A DNA stretch of 64,000 nt from positions 121,098 to 185,097 of the forward strand of contig CAVRPK010000002.1 of NCBI GenBank assembly GCA_963723105.1, read 5' to 3'. Position 1 is the stretch's first letter. Each line of letters opens with the position of its first letter. Positions 19,444 through 54,718 of this stretch are shown piece after piece. The notes beneath the pieces are model-generated. The model was not told the DNA's origin, searched no databases, and worked only from the letters and a program-made list of their open reading frames with translations. The translations under genes were made by a program, and so were the position numbers. This stretch comes from an uncultured Candidatus Micrarchaeota archaeon (GTDB taxonomy: Archaea > Micrarchaeota > Micrarchaeia > Anstonellales > Bilamarchaeaceae).

Positions 19444-22400
19444 TTACCACATTACTCTAGCAGTACCCATGATTCCCCATCCCATAGGAGCATTCATAAT
19501 TCCAGTAACGCTTTCTTCTTGTCCTGCCCATGGACTGAGTTGTTCTGGGGATGTAACTGAACCTGGTGTTGTTGGCCAGCTTCCTGAGTATCCCATAATA
19601 TGGCCAGATATTATTGTTCCTGGGTCACTACTTCCTGGATCTTGCCTTTCATAGGTTACTCCAAGGCCTCCTCTTAGAACTGGATATGTTTCGTATTCTG
19701 CTGCTGGATGGAGAGATCCCTCTGGTTCTGGACTTGTGGATGCATCTTCAAGCATTCTCCTTCTCTCAGCTCCTCCTTCAAAGAAGAAGTGGAGACTAAG
19801 AGATTCACCAGTAGTGATGTTTGTTCTTGCCCATGTGAGTCCAACTCCTGCAGTGGTTCTTTGAAGTTCATTTAGGTCTGAACACTCCCCTCCGCTTAGC
19901 TGTGAACAAACCTGTGCCATTTCATCAGCGTTTTCAAAGACATCATCACTTGCAAATACTACTTGTCTCGTTGTCTGATTGAAGAATACATATGAGTATA
20001 GCTGTTCGTTTACTCTCTCAGTATTAAGCATTGTAATGCGATGACTTAATCCAACCTGCCAATTGGTCCATTGCTCGTTTCCATATGTTCTCTGGCCATA
20101 TAATACACCTGCAAGAAGATCTTGTCTGTGGTCTTGTAATAATTGTGCAAGTGCGCCTATTGTCCAATTGCCACCTGGGCTATATTGTTCATGACCTGCT
20201 TCGGTAAGAGGTATTGTTAGTCCTCCCATGAGCCTAAATGCTGTCAGTGTTCGAAGTCTTCGATCTCCTGAGAATGTAAATTCGTAATCCTCGCCTTCTG
20301 TTGAAATGTCAAGTCTGCTAACTCCATGTCCAATGTAGTTGCCAGATTCTTCCCATTCATCAAGGTCTTCCTGAGTTCCAATCATGATAGAACCTCTTGA
20401 ATTTGGACCTGTTCCAATTCGGGTTACCATGACGAAATATCTATTTCTTCTCTCTGGACTATCCCCTTCCATTTCTGCATTGAGATGGCTTCCATAGATA
20501 ACATCATATCGTTCTGCCTGCTGTCTTCCATGCGAGTTCAATGCTGCTGCAAGGCAAGGTCTTATGTTCTGTTCAATTATTCTTCGAACTTCAGCTCCAG
20601 TTAATTCTGCTCTTGCTGGTGGCTGCCTGATATTGACTTCAGATAAACTTGCTTCAACGCTTCCGCTTGTTCCTGCTCTTCGTACAAACTCAGTTTCTAC
20701 TTCTTCAGGAGTTTTCAATACCCATCCAAGAGAATGAACATTGTTTTCAATGAGCTGTACTAGTTCTTCTCCATATTCAGTAGCAATGCGTTCTCGGTTT
20801 GGATTAACTCTTCTAAGTTCTCTATATATGTCTACAATTGCTTCTGCAGTTTCACTGCTTCTTCTTGAAGAAATTAACATTGCAAGTGGATCTTCATCCT
20901 CATCAATCATTCTTGCAAGCTCAGTTCTCACTTGTGCAACAGGTCGAATCATCCACTCAAGACCATTTCCTCTCTGTGCATGAACAATATCTGCAAATCC
21001 TTGGCCATAAATTCTTTCCATTCTGTCATGGCTGTATGCAACACTTCCAAGCCTGATGTATGCATCGCGTGCAGCTGCCGAATGATCTGAGGTTCTATGA
21101 AGCGTAACATTGCGCTCATACCTTGACAGTTCAATTGCAGGCCAATCAAGAACTCCAAAGCCCATATATGCATCAATATACGGATTTGCCCTCTCACTTC
21201 TTTGTACTTGGAACCCTCCTGTTGAATCAGGGTCTTCTACAATCATTACTGATGAATGGGTGTATCCATGACCAAGGAGGTCTATGTATGCACGAGCCGG
21301 TCTTCCAAATATAAACATTCCATAAAGATTTGCATATGCTGTTTCATCATCTGTCCATTGTCCTGTTGCAATTGTGTAAATTCTTAATCGCTCTCCATCA
21401 TATCCATAACCAAGTGCAAATCTCCAAATATCACTTGTAAAGTCATTTTGAAGGGAACTTGATAATCCTTGTAGAATCTGTTCTTCGTTTGTTGGATTTT
21501 GCTGAATGTCTAACATTGCCTGGTCTATCCGGTCATACAATCTACTAAATCCAGGAACTCTTTGCACTCCAGCAAGAATTCCATGCCTCCTGGCCCAGTA
21601 TGCCATAAGTAAACTTGCATAATGTTCGTTTGGTGCTTCTGGCTGATCCTCTGCTTCTCCTTGCCAGCCCTCCATTCTTCCATACATGTATGTTCCAGCT
21701 ACTAACCATCCAGTGTCACGAGCCTCGTCTTCTCCCCAACCATACATATTGACAAGAACATTTCTCATTGTTGCAAAAACTTCATCTGATTCCTGATCCA
21801 CTGCTCTGAATTCGCGCAGCAAATCTACTTCAGTATATCCACCAGTAAGTCCATGCCCATATGATCTGTGCGCGCCTGTCTGCCTTTCATATCTCCATCT
21901 GGCACCAGCTGTTAGTGGATATCCACCAACTGCACGGAATTCCATTGATGCTTGTCTTGGAGCAATTGCCATTCTTCTCCACATGAATTCTCCAGAACCT
22001 TCTGCCCAATGTGATCCATCTATACTTGTAGAATCCTCAGGATTCATTTCAAGAATCTGTGCTCCTCTGTAAAATCCTGCATAAATATCCCGAGCTCGTC
22101 CATCTTCAAGAATGTGGGTTACTGCTTGTCCCATGGCCTCCTCAGCATGTTGCGGAGTCATAGTTCCCATATCTCGAACAACTTGTCCAAGTGCAAGAGT
22201 AGTTGAAGTATCCCCTCTAGTAGTTGGAATTGTAAAGCCTACTGCAGCACCATCAAATCCAGCAAGAGCAGATTCTCCGTTAATCTCATTCCAAACTCCC
22301 TGCTCGCGCGCAAGCCTTTCAATTTCATCTGCGCCGGTTTGAGCTTGCTGCTCTGCATTTAGTCCAAGATGTCTTTCTATTAATCTAGTTCTCTCTGCAC

Positions 22401-25400
22401 CTGAAAGTGCTGGTGCAACTGCACTATTTCTTCCTGCAAATCTAAGGCCTGCCAGAATATTTCTGGTATCTGTACTTCCATATAAATAATTGAGTATCTG
22501 TGCGTGCGTATCAATTCCATATGCAAGATCATATGCATTTCCAGTTGATCCATCAATGTAGAAAAGTCTTGTTCTAAGCTGGCTTCTCTCATCCTGCAAT
22601 ACTGCTCCAACTGTGCCAGGAGCAGCTCCTTCTGGAACTGGCGCGCGAAGCTCTGGTGCATGTTCTCCGCCGACTACAACAAGCATATCTCCTCCAGAGT
22701 CTCTTGCAATTCTGGAATATGTTTCAAGAAGTCCACTGTATCTTTCTCTACTTTGCACCTCTCCAGTTTCTTCAGTTGTTTGGTCCGCACCTTCATAATT
22801 GAATCGTATATTCCCTCTTTGCAATCCTACTCCTTCTCCAAATGCAACTGGAATAACTCCAGCAACCCCCACTGGAAGTCCTGCTGCCTGAGCTTCAATA
22901 TCAACATCAGTTTCAGCTGTTTCACTATCTCCAGCCTCTTCTGATTCTACTGCTGTTCTTCTATGAGTTACAACCCCCCGGCCTCGAACTCCCCCAGTAA
23001 TTGCCCTTCCTTGCCCAACTCCTCCAACTGCTGCTACATCTGTTGAAGTTGTATCTGAGTCTGTTGCAGTTGGGATAGTTCCCTCATGACCGTAATAGCC
23101 ACCAACTTCCCAATCATGGCGAAGCCAATAGCTACTATAGTCTATTGGCATCTCACCAAATAATCTTGTTATCTCTCTGATAATTGTGGAAGCTCCAAGG
23201 GCTCCGATTCTATATCTTTGCGGAATTCCGTGTATCATATGTCTTCCAAGTGTTGGGTGCAGCATGTCATACATTCTTGAGAAATATTCAGTTGCACCAG
23301 AATCAAGTCCAAATCTGCTTGGAGGCTCAATCAAACTTCTTGGCATTGTTGGAGATGGGATTAAATTCCAAGGTTGTGCTGCTTGTCCATAAAGTTGTGG
23401 AAGTGGTTCCATTCCTTCCATTTGCAGGAAGTGGGGTCTGTACCTATATCCTTGAGGATTCCATGGACTTTCCATAAGTTGCCTTTCAGGAACTCTTCTA
23501 AGTTCATCCTCCATTCTATTGTGATCATATGTTGCAGTAACTTCTGGAAGTCTCTGTCCAATTCTGGCAAACACTTCAAGGAAGTATTCCCTGTTCCTAT
23601 GTGTGCTGTAAGAAAGAGTAGCTCCTGCTGTTGAGTACATCCTGCTGAATACTGTATTGAACGTTTCAATTCCGGCAACAAGTGTTCTTTCATCCTGTGC
23701 AACACTGATTATTGCTGGAAGAACCTGCAGGATGAATGGACCAACTAAGTATGGGTCTCTTTGACTAATCAATAACAGCGAATTCATTGTTGCCCGCGCG
23801 GCACTTGTTCCGAATTCTGAGCCCAGGCTTCCAATTCTGCCAAGTCCAACTCCAAGGTAAAGCGCATCAATAATCGAGAGTTGGTTTCTAAGGTTTGTTG
23901 CTTCTGCTTCAGTAAATCCTCGTGCATCTTCTGCATCAGAAGCTATTCCACTATCCCGTCTTCCCTGGAGGTATGTGCTCTCAAGCTGGCCATAGAATGT
24001 TCTTCCTGCAGTAATCAAATCTCTTCCTGATTCACTGCTAAGGAAACGTGCAAGGTCTTCTGGAGTTTGAAGTCCGCTTTCTGCAGTTCCTGGCGGAAGA
24101 CTGATACTGTATCTTCTTGCAAGTGTTTGCAGTTGTGAATTTAGAAGGTCCAGATTAATGAAATTTCTAAATAGATAATCATTTGATCCAAACTGGTCTC
24201 TGTAATGGTTAATTGCAAGAGTTAAGTTCGCACCAAGATCATCAGTTGCATTTGCAAAAACAAGAACTCCTTGAAGTCTTGAATAAACTCCTGGAAGAAC
24301 TTCAGCAACATGCCTGAAGTTTTGCATAAATTCTCCACGTGCAACCCCATCTCCTGCTTCAAAGCTTCTGTTTAATTGTTCTAATCGCTCTGCATCAACT
24401 TGTCTTAGGTGCTCAACATCACTAGTACTTAGGTTTTCAAGGAATCTAAGCTGTGCTCGGTTTCTCTCAACCATTTGCACAAATGCTGCTCCATATATTT
24501 GTCTAAGTCCTGCAATTCTTGCAGTTCTCTCTTCTGATGCCGGAGTGTTCAATGCTCCATAAACAGAACCAAGTGCATATAGCAGTTGTTCATCCTGATG
24601 TCTGTATGCTCTGTGAAGAGCAGTAACCACTCTGGTATATGCTTGTGGATATGCGCGGTATAATGATTGTCTTACTGATGCTGGAAGTGCAGTTACTTCT
24701 TCAAGTCCTGCTCTTGCCTCTGCAAGCGGAGCTAAATGCTCTCTTTGTCTTTCCACTGCACTGACAAATCTATCACCATAAAGCTCTACCATCCTCTCTC
24801 TTGTCTCAGTTCCATCAGGACGAGCTATTGCACGATAAACTCTGATCGTTATATTCGCAAACAATACGTTTTGGCCCATTCTCAAATTTTGTTCGCTAGT
24901 GCCAGTTAAATTTTCAAGGAATCCAAGAACTGGTCTGTGATCATTTATCAATCTGACAAATTCAGTTCCATGTCTTCTTTGCACATCCGCTACATTCCCG
25001 CTTCCTCTTGAAATCGCATTGTATGCCGTTCCAAGGTCTCTGCTAAATCCACGGTCTCCCATGCTGGAAATAAATGCTCTAAGCTCTGGATCAGCTCTGC
25101 CAAGTACAGCAAAAATAATATCTCCGATTACTGCTTGCTTGTCTGGATTTGTAACTCCACTGTACCAGGTCATTCCACTTCGAAGCGATCCAACATCGCT
25201 TGAGCTTGCAATTGTTTCTGAAAATCCATCAATACTGCCTGCAGTTCTTGAAAGGTCTCCTCCAGTTTCTGCAAGGTGAATCATTGAAAATGCAAGTTCA
25301 ACTGATCTTCTAAGTTCAGTTCCACTAATCATGCTTTCTTGCAGTGCTCTTTGTTCTGTTAGGAGGGTTTGTATTTCTGCTTGATCAGCACCACCTGCTG

Positions 25401-28065
25401 CAAGCCTTATCCTTCTACTTTCTTCTTCCCACCTATTGATTCTTTCTTCAAGCATTGGACGTGCAGGTGCAAGAATGCTGTGTTCCAGTTGTCTTCTCAT
25501 GCTTTCTAGATCACGTTCAATTGTACTGGAATTTGCTGTGATCTCTCCCCTACTTCCTTCAAGAGCTTCTCCTGATATTCCTCTTGTTCTTGATGCTTCT
25601 CTGCTTGCAACTGGAGTTAAGAAAAATCTTCCAAGCGAATCAATTCCATCCATTCTAGCAAGTCCGCCTCTAGTTAAAGCCTCTCTTCCACTGGCATATG
25701 AAAGAATGAATTGTACTGGAGTAAATGGAAATAGTAATTCTTTTGCTGATCTGGTTATTTGGTCTTGCCCCCGCAAAAGTCGTTGTTCAATACTTGTAAC
25801 ATTTCCGCCTAGCCACTCTAATTGCGCTCTGTTTTGAGTAACAAAATCCACTGCAGCCTGTCCATACTGAGTAACTAATTCTGCTGTAGTTGGACTTGCC
25901 TGTCCATGAGCTGCATAAATTGCATGAAGTGCTCTTGCAAGACCTCCAATTGAATATCCAATTGCTGGTGCTCCTCCTTGAGTAGCCAGTGTATCAGCTT
26001 CACGAACAAACACATCAGATGTTCTTGTTGTCATCTCATGTTCTATTTGTCCTACTGGTCTAACTGCCCAGTGCAATGTATCAAGATTTTGTGAAACATA
26101 ATTCACAAATTCACTACCATATCTTGTAGCAAGCAATTCTCTTGTTTGTCTGAATAATGTAATTTGTGCGTATGCTGCAGATAATGTAGTTCCACCGTCT
26201 TGTGGGAAAAGCGCCTTTAGCTGAACTGCAACCTCATCTGATTCTTCTCCCCTTCCAGGTGCTGATCTTCGATCAAGTTCTGCCTGTACTTCTTCTGGAG
26301 TTCCTGCAAGCCAGGATAGTTCAGCATAATGTTCAGTGATAATTGAGCCTGCTGGAACAGCGCCTATTCCAAGTCGCTCTGTTGCAAGCTGTCCATAAAC
26401 ATCTGCAAGCGCAGCACCTCTGTCAAGTCTTTCTCCGGCTTGCACTCTAATTGTCATTGAAGAAATGCGTCTTGCATGTATGTCTTCTTCGCGTGCTCTA
26501 TCTGTTAATACTCTGTTTAGATCAGTGGCAGTTCTTATCATCCAGGTTGGTCTTCTTGCTGAAACAAGCGCTATTAATTCCGGACTATATGCTGCTCTGA
26601 GTCTGTCCATATCTGGAGGGCTTCTGAGAAGTTCTATGTAAATATCTCTAACTGCGATTGATCTTACGTTTCTTCTGAAATTCATTTCAATACTTGAGAT
26701 TGTAGTATTACCCTGAATTTGCGCTCTATACAATCTTACAAACTCATTGAAGAAAGTATCATTTCTCTCAAGTGGTACTCTGGTGTATGTTCTTGATCCA
26801 ATATCTCCGGTACCCGCAACAAAATTGCCACTATAAATTCTGATAAATTCATCTCTGGCAGTTGTACTTCCAGTTGCAAGCACCTGCTCCATCAAAGTTG
26901 CGCATCTTCTAGCTAGTCCAAGCGAAATAATATCAACAAATCTGTCAACTGTTTCATTTCCATGTGCCTGTCTAAGCGATTGAAGTCTTGAGACATTGCC
27001 TGTGCTTGCAGCTTCATACATTTGCGAAACTGCAGTTGCAAATGCTTCTGGATCTACCTGGTTATTATGGTGAGTATAATATGATCTGTAAACCATGGAA
27101 ATTGGTGATGGCTGTCTATGGCCTTCCTCTCCAACTTGGTCTCTTGTTATGCGCTCCAAAAATAATCTTTGGAATCCTGTCCAGAATTCTCCGGATGTAC
27201 TGTGCGCTCCAAATATTCTTCTAAATTCATCTCTTTGTGCAGTGTCTCCAGTGAGCATAAAGTTTCGAAGAGAATCAACACATCTTGTTGCTTGCTGGTT
27301 TGGTAATTCTCCAGATAAAAGATTAGTTAAATTTTCTCCATGTCGCTCTCTTATCTCAGTAAGCCCTGTTGCTTCGAGTACATGTCTTGCAGCATCTTCT
27401 GCAGTAGCATCTGTATGAGCTCTTCTATATGCTCTGAATCTTCCAATTTCACTTTCTGCTGGAGCCTCTGTTTCTCCTGCTCTCTCTACTCTTTGAACCA
27501 GTGCATCTATCAGTGCCCATGTAGTTGCATTGGCAGCAAGCCTGGTTCTAATCTCACGAACTTTGGTAATAAAATCTTCCATGATAGAAGGTTCCATTCG
27601 AATTCCGATAACGTGATCAAGATCAGCTTCATATGCTTCAAGAATTGGACGAACTTGATCATCTGCTCTCATTGTTGTCATTCTGCTATGAAGCTCATCC
27701 ATAAATTCTCTGTTTTCAGTTACCGGCTGCTCCTGGAATTGACTTGTGATAAGAGCTCTGTATCTTGTATAATCAGCTTCATTTCCTGTTAAAATATAAT
27801 TTTGATATGCGGTTGCAGCATCCCTAGCTCTTTGCTGAAGGCCTGCTACTTCTTCCTGTTCCGCGTGGGTAGCTCCCCTACGTCGAGTTGCCGGTTGTGC
27901 CATAACAGAATTTACTCCGAGATGATTTATATTATTACCGCCTAAGAAAACTGAGACTGCAACTAAAGGCGCAAGCAAATATTTTCCAAAAATAGAACTT
28001 TTTCTGCGGTGCGGTCGCTCTCCATGATCCCCCTTTTGATCATGTTTTATTTTGGATCCAACCAT
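19444..28065 (-). CDS. giant (2873 aa) Lys/Cys-depleted, Arg/Ala/Gly-rich repeat protein with N-terminal signal/anchor; ORFan
   Basis: Uninterrupted 8.6-kb ORF with an ATG start, preceded by GGAGAA 6 nt upstream. The N-terminus has a hydrophobic segment (IFGKYLLAPLVAVSVFLGG...VMAQPATRRR). At least seven diverged tandem modules share the motif YG..FV..V..N...L.WL....P..Q. An Asp/Thr/Gly-rich low-complexity linker lies near residue 1550. There are only a handful of lysines in 2873 residues. Confidence 0.7.
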   Translation of the reverse strand: MVGSKIKHDQKGDHGERPHRRKSSIFGKYLLAPLVAVSVFLGGNNINHLGVNSVMAQPATRRRGATHAEQEEVAGLQQRARDAATAYQNYILTGNEADYTRYRALITSQFQEQPVTENREFMDELHSRMTTMRADDQVRPILEAYEADLDHVIGIRMEPSIMEDFITKVREIRTRLAANATTWALIDALVQRVERAGETEAPAESEIGRFRAYRRAHTDATAEDAARHVLEATGLTEIRERHGENLTNLLSGELPNQQATRCVDSLRNFMLTGDTAQRDEFRRIFGAHSTSGEFWTGFQRLFLERITRDQVGEEGHRQPSPISMVYRSYYTHHNNQVDPEAFATAVSQMYEAASTGNVSRLQSLRQAHGNETVDRFVDIISLGLARRCATLMEQVLATGSTTARDEFIRIYSGNFVAGTGDIGSRTYTRVPLERNDTFFNEFVRLYRAQIQGNTTISSIEMNFRRNVRSIAVRDIYIELLRSPPDMDRLRAAYSPELIALVSARRPTWMIRTATDLNRVLTDRAREEDIHARRISSMTIRVQAGERLDRGAALADVYGQLATERLGIGAVPAGSIITEHYAELSWLAGTPEEVQAELDRRSAPGRGEESDEVAVQLKALFPQDGGTTLSAAYAQITLFRQTRELLATRYGSEFVNYVSQNLDTLHWAVRPVGQIEHEMTTRTSDVFVREADTLATQGGAPAIGYSIGGLARALHAIYAAHGQASPTTAELVTQYGQAAVDFVTQNRAQLEWLGGNVTSIEQRLLRGQDQITRSAKELLFPFTPVQFILSYASGREALTRGGLARMDGIDSLGRFFLTPVASREASRTRGISGEALEGSRGEITANSSTIERDLESMRRQLEHSILAPARPMLEERINRWEEESRRIRLAAGGADQAEIQTLLTEQRALQESMISGTELRRSVELAFSMIHLAETGGDLSRTAGSIDGFSETIASSSDVGSLRSGMTWYSGVTNPDKQAVIGDIIFAVLGRADPELRAFISSMGDRGFSRDLGTAYNAISRGSGNVADVQRRHGTEFVRLINDHRPVLGFLENLTGTSEQNLRMGQNVLFANITIRVYRAIARPDGTETRERMVELYGDRFVSAVERQREHLAPLAEARAGLEEVTALPASVRQSLYRAYPQAYTRVVTALHRAYRHQDEQLLYALGSVYGALNTPASEERTARIAGLRQIYGAAFVQMVERNRAQLRFLENLSTSDVEHLRQVDAERLEQLNRSFEAGDGVARGEFMQNFRHVAEVLPGVYSRLQGVLVFANATDDLGANLTLAINHYRDQFGSNDYLFRNFINLDLLNSQLQTLARRYSISLPPGTAESGLQTPEDLARFLSSESGRDLITAGRTFYGQLESTYLQGRRDSGIASDAEDARGFTEAEATNLRNQLSIIDALYLGVGLGRIGSLGSEFGTSAARATMNSLLLISQRDPYLVGPFILQVLPAIISVAQDERTLVAGIETFNTVFSRMYSTAGATLSYSTHRNREYFLEVFARIGQRLPEVTATYDHNRMEDELRRVPERQLMESPWNPQGYRYRPHFLQMEGMEPLPQLYGQAAQPWNLIPSPTMPRSLIEPPSRFGLDSGATEYFSRMYDMLHPTLGRHMIHGIPQRYRIGALGASTIIREITRLFGEMPIDYSSYWLRHDWEVGGYYGHEGTIPTATDSDTTSTDVAAVGGVGQGRAITGGVRGRGVVTHRRTAVESEEAGDSETAETDVDIEAQAAGLPVGVAGVIPVAFGEGVGLQRGNIRFNYEGADQTTEETGEVQSRERYSGLLETYSRIARDSGGDMLVVVGGEHAPELRAPVPEGAAPGTVGAVLQDERSQLRTRLFYIDGSTGNAYDLAYGIDTHAQILNYLYGSTDTRNILAGLRFAGRNSAVAPALSGAERTRLIERHLGLNAEQQAQTGADEIERLAREQGVWNEINGESALAGFDGAAVGFTIPTTRGDTSTTLALGQVVRDMGTMTPQHAEEAMGQAVTHILEDGRARDIYAGFYRGAQILEMNPEDSTSIDGSHWAEGSGEFMWRRMAIAPRQASMEFRAVGGYPLTAGARWRYERQTGAHRSYGHGLTGGYTEVDLLREFRAVDQESDEVFATMRNVLVNMYGWGEDEARDTGWLVAGTYMYGRMEGWQGEAEDQPEAPNEHYASLLMAYWARRHGILAGVQRVPGFSRLYDRIDQAMLDIQQNPTNEEQILQGLSSSLQNDFTSDIWRFALGYGYDGERLRIYTIATGQWTDDETAYANLYGMFIFGRPARAYIDLLGHGYTHSSVMIVEDPDSTGGFQVQRSERANPYIDAYMGFGVLDWPAIELSRYERNVTLHRTSDHSAAARDAYIRLGSVAYSHDRMERIYGQGFADIVHAQRGNGLEWMIRPVAQVRTELARMIDEDEDPLAMLISSRRSSETAEAIVDIYRELRRVNPNRERIATEYGEELVQLIENNVHSLGWVLKTPEEVETEFVRRAGTSGSVEASLSEVNIRQPPARAELTGAEVRRIIEQNIRPCLAAALNSHGRQQAERYDVIYGSHLNAEMEGDSPERRNRYFVMVTRIGTGPNSRGSIMIGTQEDLDEWEESGNYIGHGVSRLDISTEGEDYEFTFSGDRRLRTLTAFRLMGGLTIPLTEAGHEQYSPGGNWTIGALAQLLQDHRQDLLAGVLYGQRTYGNEQWTNWQVGLSHRITMLNTERVNEQLYSYVFFNQTTRQVVFASDDVFENADEMAQVCSQLSGGECSDLNELQRTTAGVGLTWARTNITTGESLSLHFFFEGGAERRRMLEDASTSPEPEGSLHPAAEYETYPVLRGGLGVTYERQDPGSSDPGTIISGHIMGYSGSWPTTPGSVTSPEQLSPWAGQEESVTGIMNAPMGWGIMGTARVMW

Positions 28066-28303: not shown

Positions 28304-30724
28304 TTAAAGTCCTCTTAGTACTCTTCGCTGTTGTCTTCTTTCTGGTTGTGCTGGTGCAGTTTGAGCTGGTGCTTGCTGCTCTTCAAGAGTTATTCCCTCA
28401 ATTCCGCGTGCCCAATGTCCTGCTGGCCTTGTTCTATTTCTTTGTCTCCATGAATACACTGCAAGAGCTGTAAGTGCTTGCGCGCTTTCACGTCCATCTG
28501 CTGTTAGTGTATCTGTTGTTCCTGAAAACACTTGTCTATTTAGTATTCTCAAATCTTCTGCAAGTCTTTGATTTGTTTCTCCAGTAAGTCCTGCAACATG
28601 ATTGACAAATGCTACCATTGCTTCAATCATTAGTCTTCGATCTCCAGCAGGTGTAGTTTCGCTGAGCCTGACAGCTGGCCTTGTTACTGGTTGATACCTT
28701 GTTTGTCCTGCTGCCCAAGTGTGAAATGCTCGTCCTACAGGAGTACTTGCATCATGGAAAAGTTCATTGAAGGCTCTATCAAATGCTCTTGAGAGATCAT
28801 CTCTGTTTAGATGCCTCAGTGCTCTTTCAAAGACTGGTGTAGTAGAACTTCCATGAACAGTTGAGGCAACATCAGTAGGAAGCCTTAAGATAGATACAAT
28901 TCCTTCTGGCCTTCCTGTTTGTACTGCCCTAAACAATTCGACCTGGAGGTTTTGCCAATGCCTGTGTGCATGTTCTTCAAGCGGAGTTCGTTGTGGCTGT
29001 GCTGGCTGGGCGGTTCTTGCTACTGCTCTTTGCCAGACTGCCTGCTGAATCAATCTTCCAATTTCATTTCTTCCTCTTAAATTTGGATGAAGGTGATCTC
29101 CACGAGGGCTATCATATTCTGGTCTTAGCGTTGCCGGGGTTCCGGTTCCAAGTGATGAGGACAAGTCAACAAATATAATATCTGTTCTCTGGCGAAGCCA
29201 TGCATCAATTGCATCTGCTCTTCTTTGAGCAGCTACACTCCATCTGGGGTATGTCGCATAAGGCGGGCTTCCCCAAACAACTGGTAACACTCCTGCACTA
29301 TGCGCTCTTGCAATCATTGTCTCTAAATTACCTTGAACTGTTTCAAGTGATCTTCCGTCATTTACAATTACTGCTCCTGATATTACTACTATGTTCGGCT
29401 GTCCACGTCCTCCGATTCTATGGCCATTATATCTTCTTAGAACTCCTGACATTGCCTCTCCTGAAACACCATCAGATTCAACGCGTGCACTTGGAACATC
29501 TCTTCTAAGAAGTCTTTGCAGTTCCCTTCCAACTGCTCCTCCCGCAGTAAGTGAAGCTCCAACAATCAGTACATTTGGATTTGCAAGAGCAGCTGCGTAT
29601 CTGCTCATATCAAGACCAGTTTGAGCCTCTGCAACTCTTGTTGGTGCTGCTGGTTGCGCTTCCGGAATCTCAAGAACTTCAGGAGCTTGCCAGGTTGCAA
29701 TTCTACTTTGTGCTCTTCCGCGTCCGCGTGCTGGATGCTCCTGATACCATCTTCTCATATATAGTGATGAGCTTGTGATCGTATCTGCATCCATTGGACT
29801 GCTAAGGTATGCTCTTTGGAAAACCAATCTCACTTCCTCTCTATCTGCATCTTGCTCTGGAGTTCGAACCAAATCAACATGTGCAAGTCTTCCATGTTCT
29901 GTATCTTGATTAGTTAGAAGCTGGCTTATCTCTTGTCTAAATCTCGTGTTTCCACCATTTGGACGCGCTTCAAAATGCATCAAATAATATCTAATATAGA
30001 AATTAGCAGCTCTAATTACCGGATCACTTGCATCTGCTGCAAGAGTTCCACTACTTGCAGTAATTGCACTTTGAAGCCTTGTGAAATCCGCATTAGTTCC
30101 AGCTTGTGATGAGAGATATAATCTGAATCTTGGAATCTGCAATAATTCATTGAAAACAGAAACTGTTGTTGCTCTTTGATTAGGTGTTCCGGCGGCGCTT
30201 CCTGCTCTTTCTCCTGTAGTTAGGAACTGCTCAATATATCTGGAGTTTGTATGAAGCGCGCTTGCAGCACCTGTAGCTGCTCTGTCCGAGCCTCTGGAAT
30301 TTCTAAGCTGCGTTTCTATCCATTGTGCGGAAATTGTAGGCCTTGGAGCTTCTCGTGGCGGCGGAGTAGGTGGTCTTGCTGCCGGAGTTCTCTCCCGTGG
30401 AGGTCTGCTTCTTGGCGGCCTTGATCTTGGCGGCGGAGTAGTTCTTCTTTCTGTTCCGCCTCCTCCTGTTTCTTCTCTTGCGCCTGGATGCAATTGCCTG
30501 AAGATGCCACTTGCAATACTTCTAGCAGAACCAATCCGTTCAAATGCAGCTGCATCAGCATCAGGAGCTCCTCCTATACCTACATTAATTGCTCTTCTGA
30601 CTTTTCCAGTCAATTGTGGAATTGTGTCCTCTATACTAAAAGTAATTCCAGTAACTCTTCTCCATCCACTTGGCCCAACTACGACCAATGTATTTCCCTG
30701 AAGTTCTACTCTTGCACCTGCCAT
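28304..30724 (-). CDS. 806-aa protein with central SGNH/GDSL-hydrolase-like domain (approx 29047-29578) and N-proximal Pro/Arg-rich linker (approx 30337-30439); Lys-depleted
   Basis: The SGNH hydrolase blocks are recognisable: block I VLIVGASLTAGG (GDS(L)-type nucleophile Ser), block III VIVNDG (GxND), block V DHLHP (DxxH catalytic dyad). The linker reads PPPRSRPPRSRPPRERTPAARPPTPPPREAPRP. Its start ATG overlaps the stop of the 2360-aa gene in a TAATG arrangement. Confidence 0.6.
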   Translation of the reverse strand: MAGARVELQGNTLVVVGPSGWRRVTGITFSIEDTIPQLTGKVRRAINVGIGGAPDADAAAFERIGSARSIASGIFRQLHPGAREETGGGGTERRTTPPPRSRPPRSRPPRERTPAARPPTPPPREAPRPTISAQWIETQLRNSRGSDRAATGAASALHTNSRYIEQFLTTGERAGSAAGTPNQRATTVSVFNELLQIPRFRLYLSSQAGTNADFTRLQSAITASSGTLAADASDPVIRAANFYIRYYLMHFEARPNGGNTRFRQEISQLLTNQDTEHGRLAHVDLVRTPEQDADREEVRLVFQRAYLSSPMDADTITSSSLYMRRWYQEHPARGRGRAQSRIATWQAPEVLEIPEAQPAAPTRVAEAQTGLDMSRYAAALANPNVLIVGASLTAGGAVGRELQRLLRRDVPSARVESDGVSGEAMSGVLRRYNGHRIGGRGQPNIVVISGAVIVNDGRSLETVQGNLETMIARAHSAGVLPVVWGSPPYATYPRWSVAAQRRADAIDAWLRQRTDIIFVDLSSSLGTGTPATLRPEYDSPRGDHLHPNLRGRNEIGRLIQQAVWQRAVARTAQPAQPQRTPLEEHAHRHWQNLQVELFRAVQTGRPEGIVSILRLPTDVASTVHGSSTTPVFERALRHLNRDDLSRAFDRAFNELFHDASTPVGRAFHTWAAGQTRYQPVTRPAVRLSETTPAGDRRLMIEAMVAFVNHVAGLTGETNQRLAEDLRILNRQVFSGTTDTLTADGRESAQALTALAVYSWRQRNRTRPAGHWARGIEGITLEEQQAPAQTAPAQPERRQQRRVLRGL

Positions 30725-33700
30725 TATTGTCGCCTCGATCTATGTGCTCTTGCATATCCATGGATATGATTTCTATATGCAGTTCTAGCTCCTCTTGCGC
30801 TAAATGAAACTGTCATATCAGCTCCTTCTCCTTCAACTGTTATTCCAAGAGATCTCCTCAGTCTAGCTGATCTATCAGATGTTCCAGTTATTATTCTATA
30901 TATATCCGCCTTTATCTCTGTTCGAGCATGTGCTCTATTTGCTTGTTGCGCGCTTTCAATTCCTTCCTGGTCTTCTCCAAATGCTGCTCTCATCACAACA
31001 CCATCACCGCGCCTTCTTGTGCCTTCACCCTCAACATCATTAAACAACGCGTCGATTCTAGCATCAATAAATTCAGCTATTTGAACTCCACCGCGCTCTT
31101 CACTTTGATAAAAGCTTTGGGCCTCTGGACTAAGTCCAACTGTTGGAGCTCTTTCTACTTCTGCAGGCTCTTCGGTTTCTTCATCCTGTTGCTCTGCAGG
31201 CTGCCTTGTTTCAAAGCCTGGCCTTCTTGGATATCTTGGCCTTTCTTCTTCTTCAAGCACTTCTGCGCGCGTTCTACCTGCATCTGTTCTTCTTGGAGTT
31301 GAACTTCTAGCATCTCCTCTGCTTCTTCGTTCTGCTCCACCTGCTCGTTCTCTCATTTCAACTGGGGTTGATCCACTCCACCAGCCTCTTGATCTATAAT
31401 AACCTGATTGCCTATCGAGATACTCGTAGATTGCCTGAGGGGCCATGTCTTGAGTTTGTGCATTTGCTTGAATGTGCCTTAGAATTTCATGTAAATTTTC
31501 GATCTGATGGCCATTATCTGCCATCCACTTCATTACTCCATTTGTAGCTCGTCCTCCGCGCATTTCAGTATGAGTTGTTGCAAATGCAATTGCTTCTGCA
31601 TATTCACTGCCTCGAAGCGCTCCATCCATCTGAGCAAATATCCTAGGTGCAACTTGTCCGCTTTCTCTTGCAGTTGCAAGTGCTGTTCCAGGGTTTTCTG
31701 CAATCAAGGTTGCAAGTGCATTTAAGTCTCCGTAAATCTCTTCACCAAATTCTCCTTCAGTGAGGTTGAATCTGTTGAATGCACGAAGAGCAGCAGTGTT
31801 GCTTTCATATGTTCGAAGTAGTGACTCTAGTGTTGTTCTTACACTCGGATCCGTACAAGCTCTTCGATCAAGATTTCCTAGGAATGAATTCTGTGCAATT
31901 GCCGTTCCAAGATAGAGGTTTTCATCTGTTAAAAGTCCTCGAAGAACTTGCGCTCTTCTTGCAGGAGTAAGAGTGACAAGAGAACTAATGCTTGTTCTGT
32001 TTGCTTCAGAAGAAAGTTCACTAATTACATTATCTAAATATACTACTGGTATATGTCCCTGCTGGACTCCCATCCAGACAAATGCAAATGCGCTCGGGTT
32101 ATTGTGAAGGAATTCAATCATTCTTGCATGTTCTGCATTTGGTCTTCCTGCTTGGATTTCAGCAGGCGTAATTACTCCAGCATCAGCAAGCAGCTGAGTT
32201 GCAGCTCCTTCTGCAAATGACATCACAATTCCTCGCTCTCTCCATTGTGACATTCTAAGATCTGCCATGTCTGTAATGTCAAGATGCTCTTTGCGTTCAC
32301 TTACCAAAGTCGCATCAACCATCTCAAGACTTATTCCCCAGGGCTGAATTATTGCAAGCAATTCACGCTCTGCTTCAGTACGATCTGCACTTCCTTCAGC
32401 AGCAGTTCTTCTGGTATCAAGCAACTCATTGATATCTTCAAGTCGTCCTGTCATCTCTCTGCCATCAGTGAGGAACTCATTCATTCTTCTTGGATTCAGG
32501 TAGTGTCCGCTTCCTTCAAGAAGTGCTGTCAACTGTTCCTGGTTCCCAGGTCTTCTGTCAGTTGATTGTGGAAGGGTATTTGGCAGATGGAAATAGAACT
32601 GCCTTCCTTCTTCAGTGTCTGTTATCCAGAGTGCATTTTCTTCTGAAATGGAAATTCCAAAATCTCTTTGTGCTATTGCAATACCTTGTCTGATTTCATC
32701 TTCATTGGAAAGCATGTCATGAAGCGGACTATAAATAAATCTCCAGCCAAGATATCCTGCTCCTGCCCATGTTGCAATCTGTGGCACCATCCTCACTGAA
32801 TTTGATGGCCTGAGCATTGCATAAGGCACTGATCCTCCAGCTGCTCTTGCTGATTGGATCGCTCTGTAATACTGCATTCCCCCCCAGTGAGTCAATGGAA
32901 AATGTGCTCTTGTTCCAGTTGCCCTATGTCCAAATACCCATCTCCATGCTCCTGTTGCATACTCTCCTACTGTTCCGCGCACTGTATGCGAAGCCTCTCT
33001 TGCAAGTATTCCTGCCTGCTCTGAAATTCCAGGTATAAGCTGTTCCATTCTTGGATTTGATATTCCTATTGCATGGAAGTTTGCACGCATCTCAGCAGTT
33101 CTTACAGATCTGAGCATTCTGGCCAGTGGGGTTCCCATATCAAAGACTACTTCGATATTTCCTCCTTCACCAATTGCCTGCTCGAATATTCTTCTCTGCT
33201 GCGGTCCATAATTCTCCCGGACTGCTCTTCCAACTCTTTCACTTCGAAGGACAGTTGCGATTGCATCATCAAGATTTCCTCCCTGTAGCATTTGCTCTGA
33301 AATCCCTCTTCGAACTGCCTGCGCAACAGGATCTCCTTCTGCAGAAATTCTTCCAATCATGCTTCTTGTTGAATTTCTAAGTGTAAGTCCTTCTGCAATT
33401 ATCACATCTCCGGAAATTGCTCCTCTGCCTTCAAGTTGCAATAATAATGCAGCACGATCTCCGGCACTAAATTCTGTTCCAAGAAGTCTTTCAGTTTGTG
33501 CAAGCGGTCGCAATGCTGCTCTTTGGTCTCTTGTTTGCTGAACCAATTGCTGATTCTGTTCAAATGCTGTTTCATGGGCTGTGTTTGCTCTCTCGTGTGC
33601 TGCTTCAAGTCTAGCTAGTCTTCTTCCTGTTACTCCTCTTGTTCTTGCTGCTTCAAGGTTTACTCTTGCTGTTTCAAGAGCTTGTCCAGTCCTCTGGGCT

Positions 33701-36700: not shown

Positions 36701-37806
36701 ATTGCAGCTCGCCTTGGTGCAAGATCTCTTGCTGATGGTGCAGCTACTCCTTCTGGAACATTATCATAGAGTCCGCCAATTTCTACAAGCATTCTATTTA
36801 CTTCAAGAAGCCTGTCTCTTGCGCTCTGAAGATTTTGCTGTCTTAGTGTTCCTGCTGTAACATGCCCTAGTCTTGTATTGAATCTGTCAACTACGCGATT
36901 GAACTCTGCCATATTTCCTGTTGTAGCAGCAACTCTAAGTTGTCTTGTGAGTTGCCTTAGGGTTCTCTGTCCGCGAAGCCTTGGATCAGTTCCAGCAAAG
37001 TCTCTTTCGTATCGTCGAACATCAGCAAGAGCAACATATCCTTCATATCTTCCCCCTGTTCTTGTTCCAAGAGGCAATTGCCCTCTGGTATCTGTCTGTC
37101 CGGCAACCCAATCCTGCCTTCCCATGATTCTCTCTTCAAGCTGATGCGCTCTTGTTAGAAGAATTTCGGTATTTGCAATTCTTGCTGAGCCTGAATCAAA
37201 CCTTTCAGCTGCAGCAGTATGTTGTTCCAGTGTTTGTGCATTGACTTCCATTTCAATTGCTTCAAGCATCTCCTGTCTTCCTTGCACATAACCTGGAGTT
37301 CTCTGTCCAAAGCTGGTTGAAAATAATCCATATCTCCATCCTTCTCTTTGTCTGCTTTCTGCAGTTCCATAATAGTCTCTGGCATATTGAAGCAGAATGT
37401 GCGCTCCTTGGAAATCTCCTTGTCTTGCCCTATCTCTTGCTACTGCAAGTGCATCTTGTATCCCATCTTGCCCAATTTCTCTTCCTGCAATTGATCTTTC
37501 AATTCTTCCTGCTTCGCGTCTTACATATGCATTTTGTGCAGCTGCATAACTTTCTACAAATCTCTGTTCAATAGGCTCTCCAGCAAGTGTGAATCTTCCT
37601 CCTCTTGCATATTCAATTATCCGTTCCATTCCCTGAAGGAAGGCTGCATCGGATTCTGCTACTGATGTTATTCTTCCGCTTCTTCGAACTCCAAGTCTTT
37701 CAACTGCTTCGCTATACATTGCAATAAATGTCAAAACTCTTCTTGCTCTTGTAAGGTTTCCCTGTTCAATAAGATCATCAATATGACGCAAGCGTTTCAG
37801 TTGCAA
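30724..37806 (-). CDS. giant (2360 aa) Lys/Cys-depleted protein with internal hydrophobic four-helix core (approx 35409-35859); ORFan
   Basis: Uninterrupted 7.1-kb ORF. The start as called is TTG (the first ATG is 29 codons downstream). Residues approx 650-800 form four hydrophobic helices (LIGAGLAAAFIPVVGPYVSGAIFLGMAA ... AMAGLVVVSLGMMGAAA ... LNVANLGIATFFSGYAFY ... ALMIGLGLFPWALMGG) embedded in an otherwise highly charged Arg/Ala/Glu-rich polypeptide. A Pro/Thr/Gly-rich low-complexity tract lies near residue 1020. Confidence 0.7.
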   Translation of the reverse strand: MQLKRLRHIDDLIEQGNLTRARRVLTFIAMYSEAVERLGVRRSGRITSVAESDAAFLQGMERIIEYARGGRFTLAGEPIEQRFVESYAAAQNAYVRREAGRIERSIAGREIGQDGIQDALAVARDRARQGDFQGAHILLQYARDYYGTAESRQREGWRYGLFSTSFGQRTPGYVQGRQEMLEAIEMEVNAQTLEQHTAAAERFDSGSARIANTEILLTRAHQLEERIMGRQDWVAGQTDTRGQLPLGTRTGGRYEGYVALADVRRYERDFAGTDPRLRGQRTLRQLTRQLRVAATTGNMAEFNRVVDRFNTRLGHVTAGTLRQQNLQSARDRLLEVNRMLVEIGGLYDNVPEGVAAPSARDLAPRRAAITRLEARRTALIHYISSLQATSTYVMPHLAGEALAFFEQLQGLNGAFPEQQLGEFLGEVSREARIARAFAVLNGQLALNEQYRQVVLTTSGEVAARTGARLVQCQDQLIAARRAMLINNFEDAEQAYMQAISSRQEALMGYLAENSPMATQILFARAPGLAQALGGRQAVRTAYDEQRRMQGFEFYRSAHLSAFHQILFGNLSDDELNRRGQIATLLETSIFAIPQSGAAQITTDYARAQSEVLSQLRHAYESQGEVATAALERAQSILTVMQQTVQRNQQALQWALIGAGLAAAFIPVVGPYVSGAIFLGMAAEQIVTEYRVHGHASAESWAMAGLVVVSLGMMGAAARVGRAALAARAAGATTHAIRLSRVATGLNVANLGIATFFSGYAFYHGYQAYQRGDTTNAALMIGLGLFPWALMGGSAARRAIAIRSARGQARIYAREFAAEFGEAPPEVLGARELGNPSTMFRFMRLLRAQNPIALEIFGGFSSRLRIQISQLMRQGAIRTALRGGELNQLAEAALVRGIRGLEFPTPPGGPGGGMRPLRDLASFISNPERFRSFLGELAGFEATPAEARTSSMIAARARLEAIRAEHPQAAARIDVLLQNRAVRHALDTGIDTPFSTRAILREFGTPEAPGPLRRAVPDEVITEAHAAEATMEFEIIRTGTGTEYVIEVPGQPRITGETTMPPIRASASTPPSGTPPGTGAPAGGASRRVSGGERRTGGTPREPTGVREPGAVDSQQAELNAQALESGILRPGEQPRQIGRGTLLYRRVVGRLRDWRATRAARRNPAEPPNADRIIEDAQTRMSDIISDITMTPEEVNVVIGRANRVAERAEANFRTLTEAGAPAAEVQAAQRTALQARAEATEVANMARNSVQRSIDLFVRIDRMATSAGRGTREGYLGVLRKLYSSPNLRPHLEAAARSDPALARALARTQGSIRQAAGSSRTADAYMELTDARPFTTEEVTLIVEATERGAAARLAEIESSLAASEAVAQRTGQALETARVNLEAARTRGVTGRRLARLEAAHERANTAHETAFEQNQQLVQQTRDQRAALRPLAQTERLLGTEFSAGDRAALLLQLEGRGAISGDVIIAEGLTLRNSTRSMIGRISAEGDPVAQAVRRGISEQMLQGGNLDDAIATVLRSERVGRAVRENYGPQQRRIFEQAIGEGGNIEVVFDMGTPLARMLRSVRTAEMRANFHAIGISNPRMEQLIPGISEQAGILAREASHTVRGTVGEYATGAWRWVFGHRATGTRAHFPLTHWGGMQYYRAIQSARAAGGSVPYAMLRPSNSVRMVPQIATWAGAGYLGWRFIYSPLHDMLSNEDEIRQGIAIAQRDFGISISEENALWITDTEEGRQFYFHLPNTLPQSTDRRPGNQEQLTALLEGSGHYLNPRRMNEFLTDGREMTGRLEDINELLDTRRTAAEGSADRTEAERELLAIIQPWGISLEMVDATLVSERKEHLDITDMADLRMSQWRERGIVMSFAEGAATQLLADAGVITPAEIQAGRPNAEHARMIEFLHNNPSAFAFVWMGVQQGHIPVVYLDNVISELSSEANRTSISSLVTLTPARRAQVLRGLLTDENLYLGTAIAQNSFLGNLDRRACTDPSVRTTLESLLRTYESNTAALRAFNRFNLTEGEFGEEIYGDLNALATLIAENPGTALATARESGQVAPRIFAQMDGALRGSEYAEAIAFATTHTEMRGGRATNGVMKWMADNGHQIENLHEILRHIQANAQTQDMAPQAIYEYLDRQSGYYRSRGWWSGSTPVEMRERAGGAERRSRGDARSSTPRRTDAGRTRAEVLEEEERPRYPRRPGFETRQPAEQQDEETEEPAEVERAPTVGLSPEAQSFYQSEERGGVQIAEFIDARIDALFNDVEGEGTRRRGDGVVMRAAFGEDQEGIESAQQANRAHARTEIKADIYRIITGTSDRSARLRRSLGITVEGEGADMTVSFSARGARTAYRNHIHGYARAHRSRRQ

Positions 37807-39013
37807 CTGTTTTCTGTGAAAATCTTCCCCAGGTTCCTATTCTTGTTCTAAGTTCACTTACTGTTGAAGAATATTCATGGCGAAGTGTTCCGTCATGGAA
37901 CTGTTCACTGCTGTCGGTTCCGGTAAGCTCTGCATCAAGTGCTGCTTCCATCTGCTCTGAGCCTGCAAATGCTCTCCATCTTCTCTGCTCACCAATTGTT
38001 GTGTATGCAGTTACCATATCAAACAATCGTTCTGCTCCAGCAACATCCCCACTCAAAAGCCTAACTCTCGCAGCCTGAATTGCTGATCGAATTCTTTCTC
38101 TTTTTGCTGCTGGGCCTCTATTTCTATATCTTGTTTCAAGCGAATCCATATCTGCTCTTAGCGTTGCGATATTGAGCGTGTCCTGGAATCTGTGCGCCAT
38201 TGCTGGCGTGAATGAAATCCTTCCATCAATGATTCTGTTTATCTCTGCATAATTATCGAGATATCGTCTTCCTTGTCCATTTGCAATCTGCTCAAGAAGA
38301 CCCATCATCATTGAAAGTCTTGCAATCTGAACCTCACTAGAATCAAGTGCATCAAGTGCTCTTTGAGCATACCATGCCGGGCTATGTTCTGCCGGAGCTC
38401 TTCTTGAAGTTCCCCTAAGCGCAACTGCCCTTTCCCTCAAATCTTCTACTTGTTCCGTTTCAGTTCTTGGCTGCACTGTTCCGCTTAATATATGGTATCT
38501 CTGAATCAGTCCTCGAGCCTGCTGAAGATCAACTGTCCTATCTCTCCCAAGTCTTGCTAAAAAAGTATCCATCTCCTGCTGAAGGCTTTGGATGGCAGCT
38601 GCCCGTATTCTATCTTGTGCAACATCTGCAGAAATTAATTCAAGTTGCTGCCTGTAGTGTGTGAGTGTTGCTATTGTTTCAGTTCTAATTGCAGATTGTG
38701 CTGTCCTTAAATCCTCAGTAAATTGTCCAATAAACTGCCTATCTGCTATTGCATCTTCTTCTGAATATATCACTCCCTCTCTGGCATCTTCGCCTCTCTC
38801 AATAATAAATCTGTATCCTCTATCTCTGATAATTGATGCCTGGGATCCTTCTATCCTGCTAAGCTGAGGAAGTCTTGCAAGCAATCTCCCAACTGCTAAA
38901 ATATTAATTCCTCTTTGGTTGTTACGTGTTCCAATATCAATAAGCGCTGATTCAAGTCCGTTGCAATACTTCATCTGGAATGTCCTCACTTTCAATTCCA
39001 GAAATTTGTACAT
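37778..39013 (-). CDS. hypothetical 411-aa protein of the giant-gene cluster (Lys-depleted, Arg-rich, predicted helical)
   Basis: ATG start. It overlaps the upstream 175-aa gene by about 60 nt and the downstream giant gene by up to 29 nt. After the first 15 residues there are no further Lys. Confidence 0.5.
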   Translation of the reverse strand: MYKFLELKVRTFQMKYCNGLESALIDIGTRNNQRGINILAVGRLLARLPQLSRIEGSQASIIRDRGYRFIIERGEDAREGVIYSEEDAIADRQFIGQFTEDLRTAQSAIRTETIATLTHYRQQLELISADVAQDRIRAAAIQSLQQEMDTFLARLGRDRTVDLQQARGLIQRYHILSGTVQPRTETEQVEDLRERAVALRGTSRRAPAEHSPAWYAQRALDALDSSEVQIARLSMMMGLLEQIANGQGRRYLDNYAEINRIIDGRISFTPAMAHRFQDTLNIATLRADMDSLETRYRNRGPAAKRERIRSAIQAARVRLLSGDVAGAERLFDMVTAYTTIGEQRRWRAFAGSEQMEAALDAELTGTDSSEQFHDGTLRHEYSSTVSELRTRIGTWGRFSQKTVATETLASY

Positions 39014-54221: not shown

Positions 54222-54718
54222 GAGGGCTTCAGCTTGAAAGCTGCACTTTCAAGATTGCACAAACCTCTTGAGATTCGCAGCAGGTAATCAATGAACAAAA
54301 ACAGAGTTGTGGGCTTCCCGGTTAGCTTTTAGCAAACATACAAGGAGCCAACCCAATCCACTCAATCCTGGATCTTACAAGCATGGAATAAAATGTTTAG
54401 GGCTGCTTCTTTCGATCTGACCCGATTCACACAGTATCCCACCATATAAGGCAGGACGTCAACGCTTCAAGAGGCTGGGCATGTATATTCACCAAAACGC
54501 CCCGGGCATTCGAGTCACCTAAGGGGATTTGTGATGCCGGGACCCCTAGCCCCGCTCTAGCCCATTAATATAATGCAATTGGCGCTTTTAAATTATGCTG
54601 ATATGATCAAACATCACTTCCAAAGACAAAATATTGCATTTTTCATACCTACCTTATTCTTTTACTACTATTCACCACAAAAAGCAACTTTATAAACACT
54701 TTTACGTTAAATAATACT
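54222..54718. ncRNA. unusually long (about 500 nt) GC-rich intergenic region (core about 54300-54560); candidate structured ncRNA or long structured 5' leader of unknown class
   Basis: GC is about 50% against about 30% in other spacers, the usual sign of a structural RNA in an AT-rich genome. It begins with a strong hairpin CTTGAAAG-CTGCA-CTTTCAAG (54233-54253). I found no tRNA cloverleaf, SRP RNA GGAAGG/AGCAGC motifs, or RNase P P4 motifs. Confidence 0.25.

Follow-up and report, generated by a model that had tools for sequence, protein, structure and literature searches.

The DNA analyzed here, hereafter the window, is a stretch of 64,000 nucleotides from contig CAVRPK010000002.1 (assembly GCA_963723105.1) of an uncultured Candidatus Micrarchaeota archaeon, a tiny symbiont of the DPANN group. 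Its minus strand carries the gene of a giant protein, an open reading frame (ORF) which the initial annotation had described and which is indeed real. Upstream of it lie the gene for a protein with an SGNH/GDSL hydrolase domain and a second giant gene; the three are probably co-transcribed and are referred to below as the operon. The giant protein contains two families of repeated modules, abbreviated here as YG and LTG, together with a conserved central domain and two regions rich in predicted beta strands, at the positions collected in table 1.

Table 1. Features of the giant protein and of its operon. Residues refer to the protein concerned, positions to the window. aa, amino acids; AF2, AlphaFold2; HMM, hidden Markov model.
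Feature	Residues	Window position	Strand	Evidence or remark
Giant ORF		19444-28065	minus	uninterrupted, 2873 aa (stop included)
Basic N-region and hydrophobic segment 25-43 (IFGKYLLAPLVAVSVFLGG)	1-56	27898-28065	minus	Kyte-Doolittle peak 1.72
LTG unit 1	78-130	27676-27834	minus	motif Y-I-L-T-G-N
LTG unit 2	257-309	27139-27297	minus	LTG HMM
LTG unit 3	383-448	26722-26919	minus	LTG HMM
YG module block A (M1-M5)	314-769	25759-27126	minus	module HMM, hhalign
Copies of block A	M1 314-399; M2 439-527; M3 526-605; M4 607-695; M5 704-769			M1 weak; YG lost in M3
AFSMIHLAETGGD, most conserved short motif of the family	921-937	25255-25305	minus	invariant alignment columns
YG module block B (M6-M8)	976-1254	24304-25140	minus	module HMM, hhalign
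Copies of block B	M6 976-1064; M7 1063-1141; M8 1139-1254
Central conserved domain	1255-1660	23086-24303	minus	56% identity
Gly/Thr/Val-rich linker	1661-1780	22726-23085	minus	low conservation
Beta region 1	1939-2322	21100-22251	minus	AF2 prediction; ~18-20 long antiparallel strands, one helical insertion
YG module block C (M9-M10), between both beta regions	2290-2497	20575-21198	minus	module HMM, AF2, hhalign
Copies of block C	M9 2290-2389; M10 2389-2497			M9 as HMM match, helical core 2328-2389
Beta region 2, end ...GWGIMGTARVMW	2580-2873	19447-20328	minus	AF2 prediction; 12 long strands
Upstream partner, 806-aa lysine-free protein		28304-30724	minus	SGNH/GDSL hydrolase domain
SGNH/GDSL domain of the partner	388-551	29072-29563	minus	GASLT, VND and DHLH motifs present
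Second giant gene, split into ORFs of 2360, 411 and 175 aa		30724-39479	minus	lysine-free

The YG module spans about 80-90 residues and recurs in ten copies, which follow each other head-to-tail within three blocks. All seven peptides quoted in the initial annotation are present, at residues 649, 734, 1032, 1096, 1191, 2353 and 2431, but the gaps between them (85, 298, 64, 95, 1162 and 78 residues) depart from the spacing of 150-300 residues given there, and the count of at least seven modules, although it captured a genuine recurrence, missed the degenerate copies M1-M3. Self-BLAST of the whole protein returned no off-diagonal matches, so that windowed BLAST and HMMs were required to detect the repeat. 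Windowed comparisons revealed in-register similarity reaching about 40 residues upstream and 35 residues downstream of each YG; a seed HMM recovered seven copies plus three weaker ones, and its iteration over close homologues converged at 79 instances, distributed over ten positions that coincide in all full-length proteins. Scored with an HMM built from the nine other positions, the held-out copies reach 16-80 bits (1-27 bits for M1, the weakest position), against a top domain score of 6.0 bits over 160 shuffled full-length proteins. Comparison of orthologue sub-alignments with hhalign gave probabilities of 85-99% for most pairs among M2-M10, with E-values down to 8e-22, and of 80-94% for M1 versus M6, M5 and M8, against no more than 18% for two control segments of equal length.

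These results bear directly on the explanation that the recurrence of the motif reflects compositional bias, namely helices rich in Arg, Ala and Glu, or an artefact of assembly. The composition of the protein is certainly skewed (278 Arg and 10 Lys, equivalent to 9.7% and 0.3%), but shuffles of the same composition do not reproduce the scores of the held-out copies and control helical segments fail to match the modules; because of these tests we exclude bias and artefact alike, leaving this explanation a negligible probability. Every copy is, moreover, conserved position by position across 18 independent genomes, so that the gene carrying them is not an assembly artefact, and no DNA repeat longer than about 30 nucleotides occurs inside it, so the earlier statements on the absence of long identical repeats and of an artefact are both borne out, as is the periodicity that the initial annotation had exposed to refutation. 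Identity is about 15-30% among paralogous YG copies but 45-47% when one position is compared across species, which shows that the duplications are ancient and that every copy has been conserved individually, in agreement with the previously suggested modular expansion.

The second unit, LTG, is about 55 residues long and occurs in three copies with the motif [FY][IMV]LTG[DNS]......F..I[FYW], the held-out copies scoring 8-40 bits versus 5.3 bits at most for shuffles. LTG2 and LTG3 directly precede the YG modules M1 and M2, and no YG module was detected after LTG1. The combination of LTG with YG is shared by the distant homologues P0022 and P0037. In some other homologues (P0006, at residues 1757-1826, and P0009 and P0012 at the equivalent site) the Gly/Thr-rich linker that precedes the beta region contains an additional YG module; certain lineages have thus acquired the module at a novel position. 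Both YG and LTG constitute new families of repeats, absent from Pfam. YG modules account for about 31% of the length of the protein, and for about 37% together with the LTG units, which does not sustain the earlier description of a protein built from modules.

No match to the giant protein was found in Pfam, NCBIfam, PADLOC or PHROGs, nor among PDB sequences, either by single sequence or by a profile of 26 rows. The search of 51 individual modules against Pfam produced no recurring family (best single E-value, 0.012), and neither these modules nor the whole protein showed profile matches to spectrin, FIVAR/GA, HEAT, TPR or Sel1 repeats; the novelty claimed for the module is thus upheld against Pfam, NCBIfam and PDB. 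Close homologues number only eight among 5.8 billion clustered proteins, with identities of 40-100%, and the named ones belong to Candidatus Micrarchaeota. The search with a module HMM that had been recommended, conducted with a profile of 72 positions against 1.84 billion representative proteins, returned only 33 matches at E<=0.001. About 30 of these correspond to giant proteins (1800-3060 residues, up to 12 copies) or to pieces of such proteins, and two (P0034 and P0038) are unrelated repetitive proteins. All family members that carry a source name are Micrarchaeota, and the gene is present in 18 of the 185,579 GTDB species genomes scanned with a pattern derived from AFSMIHLAETGGD, all of them Micrarchaeota or unclassified archaeal metagenome-assembled genomes. 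The literature searched contains no earlier description of this family of giant proteins.

The positions conserved in the YG module are hydrophobic or aromatic core residues together with one Gly, one Asn and one Arg, a pattern more in keeping with a structural or docking role than with enzymatic activity. An AF2 model of the M9-M10 pair, built with an alignment augmented with paralogues, is all-helical, with five short helices per module, and has a predicted local distance difference test (pLDDT) score of 63.7; it has no fold match in the PDB by Foldseek. Within a larger construct (residues 1781-2873) the same two modules are predicted as bundles of 4-5 short helices with pLDDT of 81-94, consistent with the helical nature proposed initially. 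The flank on the N-terminal side of the M9 HMM match overlaps the last strands of beta region 1.

The N-terminus of the protein combines a basic n-region with a hydrophobic segment of 19 residues, and in the family consensus this segment is followed by the conserved NIN.LG.N.AMA|QP, the putative c-region being unusually long. The signal- or anchor-like segment noticed earlier is therefore present, and residues 1-56 probably constitute a Sec-type signal peptide or an N-terminal anchor. Further along the chain, AFSMIHLAETGGD sits in the helical linker (residues 771-975) that separates blocks A and B; a sortase-like reading of the LAETG inside it was considered and found to be unsupported, the motif being internal with no membrane anchor after it. 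The central domain includes an invariant hydrophobic stretch, RDPYLVGPFILQVLPAIISVA (residues 1436-1456; RDPYLVGPF.LQVLPAII), and together with the beta regions it forms the best-conserved part of the giant protein in comparisons with orthologues.

For the C-terminal part, an AF2 model of residues 1781-2873, computed with an alignment of 26 rows including distant homologues, has a mean pLDDT of 76.1 and a predicted template modeling score (pTM) of 0.54, its strand-rich blocks lying mostly at pLDDT 80-93. The model runs from beta region 1 through the two helical modules and a small alpha/beta insert to beta region 2, and the predicted fold is a closed antiparallel meander beta-barrel, as in outer-membrane barrels. 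Foldseek placed first SprA, the translocon of the type IX secretion system (T9SS), with E-values of 9e-8 to 4e-7 and probability 1.0 though with low TM-scores (0.17), followed by SusC and TonB-dependent transporters, LptD and the 30-strand SlpA. The protein terminates in ...TARVMW, namely with a C-terminal beta-signal ending in an aromatic residue, and W or F is the last residue in 19 of the 27 complete C-termini of the family, even in strongly diverged members (P0022, P0035 and P0039), among them some whose C-terminal halves cannot be aligned. Two of the latter, P0022 (L021, 8134-15396) and P0035, retain the LTG and YG modules of the N-terminal part, and their C-terminal halves are beta-rich and end in ...IIFNW and ...NLGGTF, which suggests replacement of the barrel, or its extreme divergence, behind a conserved stalk. 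The stretch GYGYDGERLRIY had also prompted the consideration of an RHS/YD shell similar to that of Tc toxins, which was rejected since neither profile nor fold matches were found.

On this basis we propose, as a reading with an even chance of being right, that the giant is an exported envelope protein with a helical stalk and a C-terminal barrel, acting at the cell surface as a conduit or tether. The signal-like N-terminus would be followed by an all-helical stalk of about 1250 residues derived from the ancient duplication of the YG module; its two blocks comprise eight YG copies, the first of which are interleaved with the three LTG units. The central domain would lead, through a flexible Gly/Thr-rich linker, to a very large barrel of the bacterial outer-membrane type, which would occupy the last 1100 residues or so and comprise two segments totalling about 30 strands. 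M9 and M10 would sit between these segments, either inside the barrel or capping it, and the chain would close with the aromatic residue typical of outer-membrane barrels. In this view, the YG and LTG modules may provide rigid spacing and probably also docking surfaces, so that the distance between the cell membrane and a barrel-shaped pore or anchor would be kept constant; the whole would form a conduit or tether across the envelope, located where symbiont and partner come into contact.

Several observations weigh against this proposal. The model of the two isolated modules is of low confidence, as its pLDDT indicates, and the barrel comes from one AlphaFold model of modest pTM in which a single barrel of about 30 strands and two separate barrels are indistinguishable. 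A PDB profile search revealed no outer-membrane protein of solved structure that is homologous in sequence, and no Pfam or NCBIfam family matches. Strand amphipathicity does not significantly exceed that of within-strand shuffles in two tests, so that a lipid-exposed belt is not demonstrated: the best alternate face over five residues averages 3.53/5 hydrophobic versus 3.32 +/- 0.11 in shuffles, and the family-averaged difference in hydropathy is 2.00 versus 1.82 +/- 0.17, the pattern being clearer in beta region 2. Finally, Ca. Micrarchaeum harzensis A_DKE, the sole cultivated Micrarchaeon with an examined envelope, has an S-layer rather than the outer membrane that had been postulated (bioRxiv 10.1101/2021.04.28.441871).

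The weak amphipathicity and the pTM value would also fit a purely fibrous or array-like adhesin, or an S-layer-type scaffold, in which AlphaFold would have misread beta-rich domains of the sheath or sandwich kind as a barrel. The ten helical modules and the three LTG units would suit such a molecule, and giant surface proteins of archaea are commonly adhesins (PMC5498576). The modest share of YG modules in the chain, the conserved aromatic terminus and the absence of Ig, PKD, CARDB or beta-helix adhesin domains in Pfam searches speak against this alternative, which we regard as distinctly unlikely. In the same vein, the fibre or array that the initial annotation envisaged for the whole protein is not supported, since about two thirds of it consist of other domains and the C-terminal 1100 residues or so are a predicted barrel.

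If the barrel is taken at face value, it might instead belong to a diderm clade, the giant being a connector of the SlpA/OmpM kind with its barrel in the cell's own outer membrane and its stalk spanning the inter-membrane space towards the cytoplasmic membrane. The architecture is indeed SlpA-like, with Foldseek matches to 8agd and 7zgx at E-values of 3e-3 and 8e-3, the Sec-like signal combined with the terminal aromatic residue is the classical signature of outer-membrane proteins, and an outer membrane, hence two membranes, had earlier been postulated for Micrarchaeota (bioRxiv 10.1101/2021.04.28.441871). We nevertheless judge this connector unlikely: besides the S-layer of A_DKE and the amphipathicity values just given, the protein has neither an SLH domain in Pfam nor a true coiled coil, and no evidence of Omp85/BAM emerged from the 64-kb window and the orthologous loci, where no search was aimed specifically at barrel-assembly machinery.

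The putative stalk-and-barrel protein is encoded in a conserved setting. Across orthologous loci the order giant, GDSL protein, giant, then Trm56 and PGM is maintained, and the P0022 locus retains the same synteny although its protein is only 20% identical, over the N-terminal part only. The flanking genes are archaeal housekeeping genes (aTrm56, eIF6, fibrillarin, geranylgeranyl reductase, ThyX, SRP54-type GTPase and Cdc48), and codon usage is native, with a GC content at third codon positions (GC3) of 0.24 versus 0.28 in the housekeeping genes. From the conserved synteny and native codon usage it follows that the operon is an old, vertically inherited part of the chromosome. A foreign island, considered for the raised GC at 20-40 kb, is ruled out by the native GC3 and Arg-codon usage and by the vertical synteny; a phage or defence protein was likewise discarded, given the empty PHROGs and PADLOC searches for the giant, its native codons and its chromosomal synteny. 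No paralogy links the two giants of the operon, and the module HMM matches none of the neighbouring proteins. The SGNH hydrolase and the second giant, whose ORF of 2360 residues presents three transmembrane-like segments at residues 650-795, would be the partners of the barrel protein.

Some peculiarities of the second giant gene deserve mention. It consists of three overlapping ORFs in three frames, with junctions at 37778-37806 and 38952-39013; its orthologue at locus L002 is one ORF of about 2900 residues, and tblastn locates a frame change near 37790-37970. The split may be due to a frameshift in sequencing or assembly, to a pseudogene or to recoding. Around 135 C-terminal residues are shared by the ORF of 2360 residues (30736-31146) and an ORF of 1253 residues (39926-40300; BLASTP E-value, 8e-12). 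This latter ORF (39917-43678) is lysine-normal and has weak matches to LXG and LegC2/C7, and the common C-terminal domain apparently links it, as a fourth large gene, to the locus.

The scarcity of Lys in the giant protein extends to the whole operon, since K/(K+R) is 0.01-0.09 in all five ORFs between 19444 and 39479, compared with 0.5-0.9 for most other ORFs of the window. Arg, encoded in 80% of cases by AGA or AGG, numerically substitutes Lys, and this replacement accounts for the regional GC of 42-47%. A control surface protein in the window (7578-9071, minus strand), which has a signal peptide, a CARDB/NEW3-like domain and a C-terminal transmembrane anchor, shows a K/(K+R) of 0.86; Lys loss is therefore not general to exported proteins here. 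Twelve of 17 loci have all the operon genes present depleted in Lys, in genomes with GC of 39-66%, while in the remaining five the operon genes are all lysine-normal (0.27-0.66), at GC of 41-59%; the flanking genes are lysine-normal at all 17 loci. Such a co-ordinated and GC-independent trait indicates that, in a subset of the family, selection has acted on the complex at the protein level. No account of lysine-free archaeal operons was found in the literature searched.

These features are pertinent to yet another explanation, that of an effector directed at the host, in which the barrel inserts in the membrane of the partner as a translocon or pore and, together with the SGNH hydrolase, provides a channel for the uptake of lipids and metabolites, the loss of Lys shielding the complex from lysine-directed tagging or proteolysis in or at the host. 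The DPANN lifestyle, with its precedent of giant host-interaction proteins (PMC10266531), the conservation of the hydrolase in the operon and the co-ordinated loss of Lys over three proteins, independent of genome GC, are in line with it, as are the lysine-poor AB toxins, which are thought to evade ubiquitination (PMC10665810). Yet about one third of the family is lysine-normal. We know of no single-chain giant barrel acting as an inserted toxin, and archaeal hosts have ether lipids, so that an ester-lipid hydrolase would be without obvious substrate. Overall, we assign a low probability to such a host-directed pore.

Extending the proposal of an exported stalk-and-barrel protein, it is conceivable, if rather doubtful, that this clade of Micrarchaeota makes genuine membrane-type beta-barrels within a giant machine, either a diderm tether or pore or a feeding channel in the partner membrane, operating with the SGNH hydrolase and the second giant; the removal of Lys would then be adaptive and could protect against lysine-directed tagging, cross-linking or proteolysis by the partner. 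Outside the outer membranes of bacteria and organelles, membrane-type beta-barrels are, to our knowledge, not known, and the type predicted here is not described in Archaea within the literature searched; should the prediction be correct, the range of outer-membrane-type barrels would come to include Archaea, whether through convergence or through an ancient transfer. For two questions, how DPANN archaea attach to other cells and gain resources from them and whether the envelope of Micrarchaeota comprises one membrane or two, a conserved chromosomal operon offers a concrete molecular candidate at the cell-cell interface. A lysine-free operon in a lysine-rich proteome, with lysine-normal sister orthologues, additionally constitutes a natural experiment on the shedding of Lys by exported machines.

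Elsewhere in the window, the ORFs at 61402-62535 (minus strand) and 3876-4676 (plus strand) have lipobox-like N-termini (LGAC and ILGC, respectively), and the former, outside the operon, is lysine-poor too, with a K/(K+R) of 0.15. An SRP RNA at 54309-54565 (minus strand) matches the Rfam model 'Bacteria_large_SRP' with 66.8 bits (gathering score, 60), in an archaeal genome.

Among known systems, SprA of the Bacteroidota T9SS (PDB 6h3i, 8gl6 and 8gl8) shares with our giant a single chain of more than 2000 residues and a huge beta-barrel with inserted domains, but there is no detectable sequence similarity to accompany the low TM-scores; SprA is bacterial, resides in a true outer membrane and is without an N-terminal stalk of helical repeats, and none of its T9SS partners was found among the neighbouring ORFs scanned. 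Porins (OmpT 5oyk, Omp32 1e54, maltoporin 1mpr), TonB-dependent transporters, PgaA, PelB, TOM40 and VDAC show 4-11% identity and no Pfam match. The giant differs from these classical barrels in being archaeal, in the fusion of its predicted barrel to about 1700 residues of unrelated domains and in that a hydrophobic belt is not demonstrated. Type Va autotransporters have an arrangement like the one proposed for the giant, with a signal peptide, a long passenger and a C-terminal barrel ending in an aromatic residue, and the last beta region here has 12 predicted strands; the Pfam Autotransporter translocator of 12 strands with its linker helix was, however, not recognized in the protein.

The layout of SlpA comprises SLH, coiled-coil and a 30-strand barrel. 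The SlpA/OmpM tethers of Deinococcus and Negativicutes have, as is predicted for the giant, an N-terminal anchor, a long helical stalk and a C-terminal barrel of about 30 strands, but the stalk predicted here consists of globular helical YG and LTG modules instead of a trimeric coiled coil with SLH, and in an archaeon no peptidoglycan is expected, unlike in the hosts of SlpA/OmpM. SlpA has been described as a multidomain connector from the outer membrane to the cell wall (PMC9388160). SPEARE proteins of Nanohaloarchaeota, giant Sec-exported proteins of DPANN that have been proposed as channels for host interaction, contain Ig-like or fibronectin-like domains and a VirB4/TraG-like ATPase (PMC10266531), none of which was found in the giant, and no homology exists between the two. 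The nearest concept to the depletion of Lys is that of lysine deserts and lysine-poor AB toxins (PMC10665810), in which Lys is likewise strongly avoided by selection while Arg is kept; in our case, the trait embraces a whole three-gene archaeal operon (about 6600 codons) in only part of the family.

FIVAR/GA repeats of Ebh and spectrin repeats are tandem helical bundles of 70-130 residues, diverged at the DNA level, that build the elongated stalks of giant proteins. The YG module resembles them in role only, with no sequence or profile match, and its 4-5 short predicted helices differ from their three-helix bundle; moreover, YG copies are distributed in three blocks, one of them inside the barrel region. 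Membership tests based on sequence fail for every system considered, and what is new here is the module family, a predicted archaeal type of barrel and an unexplained lysine-free operon.

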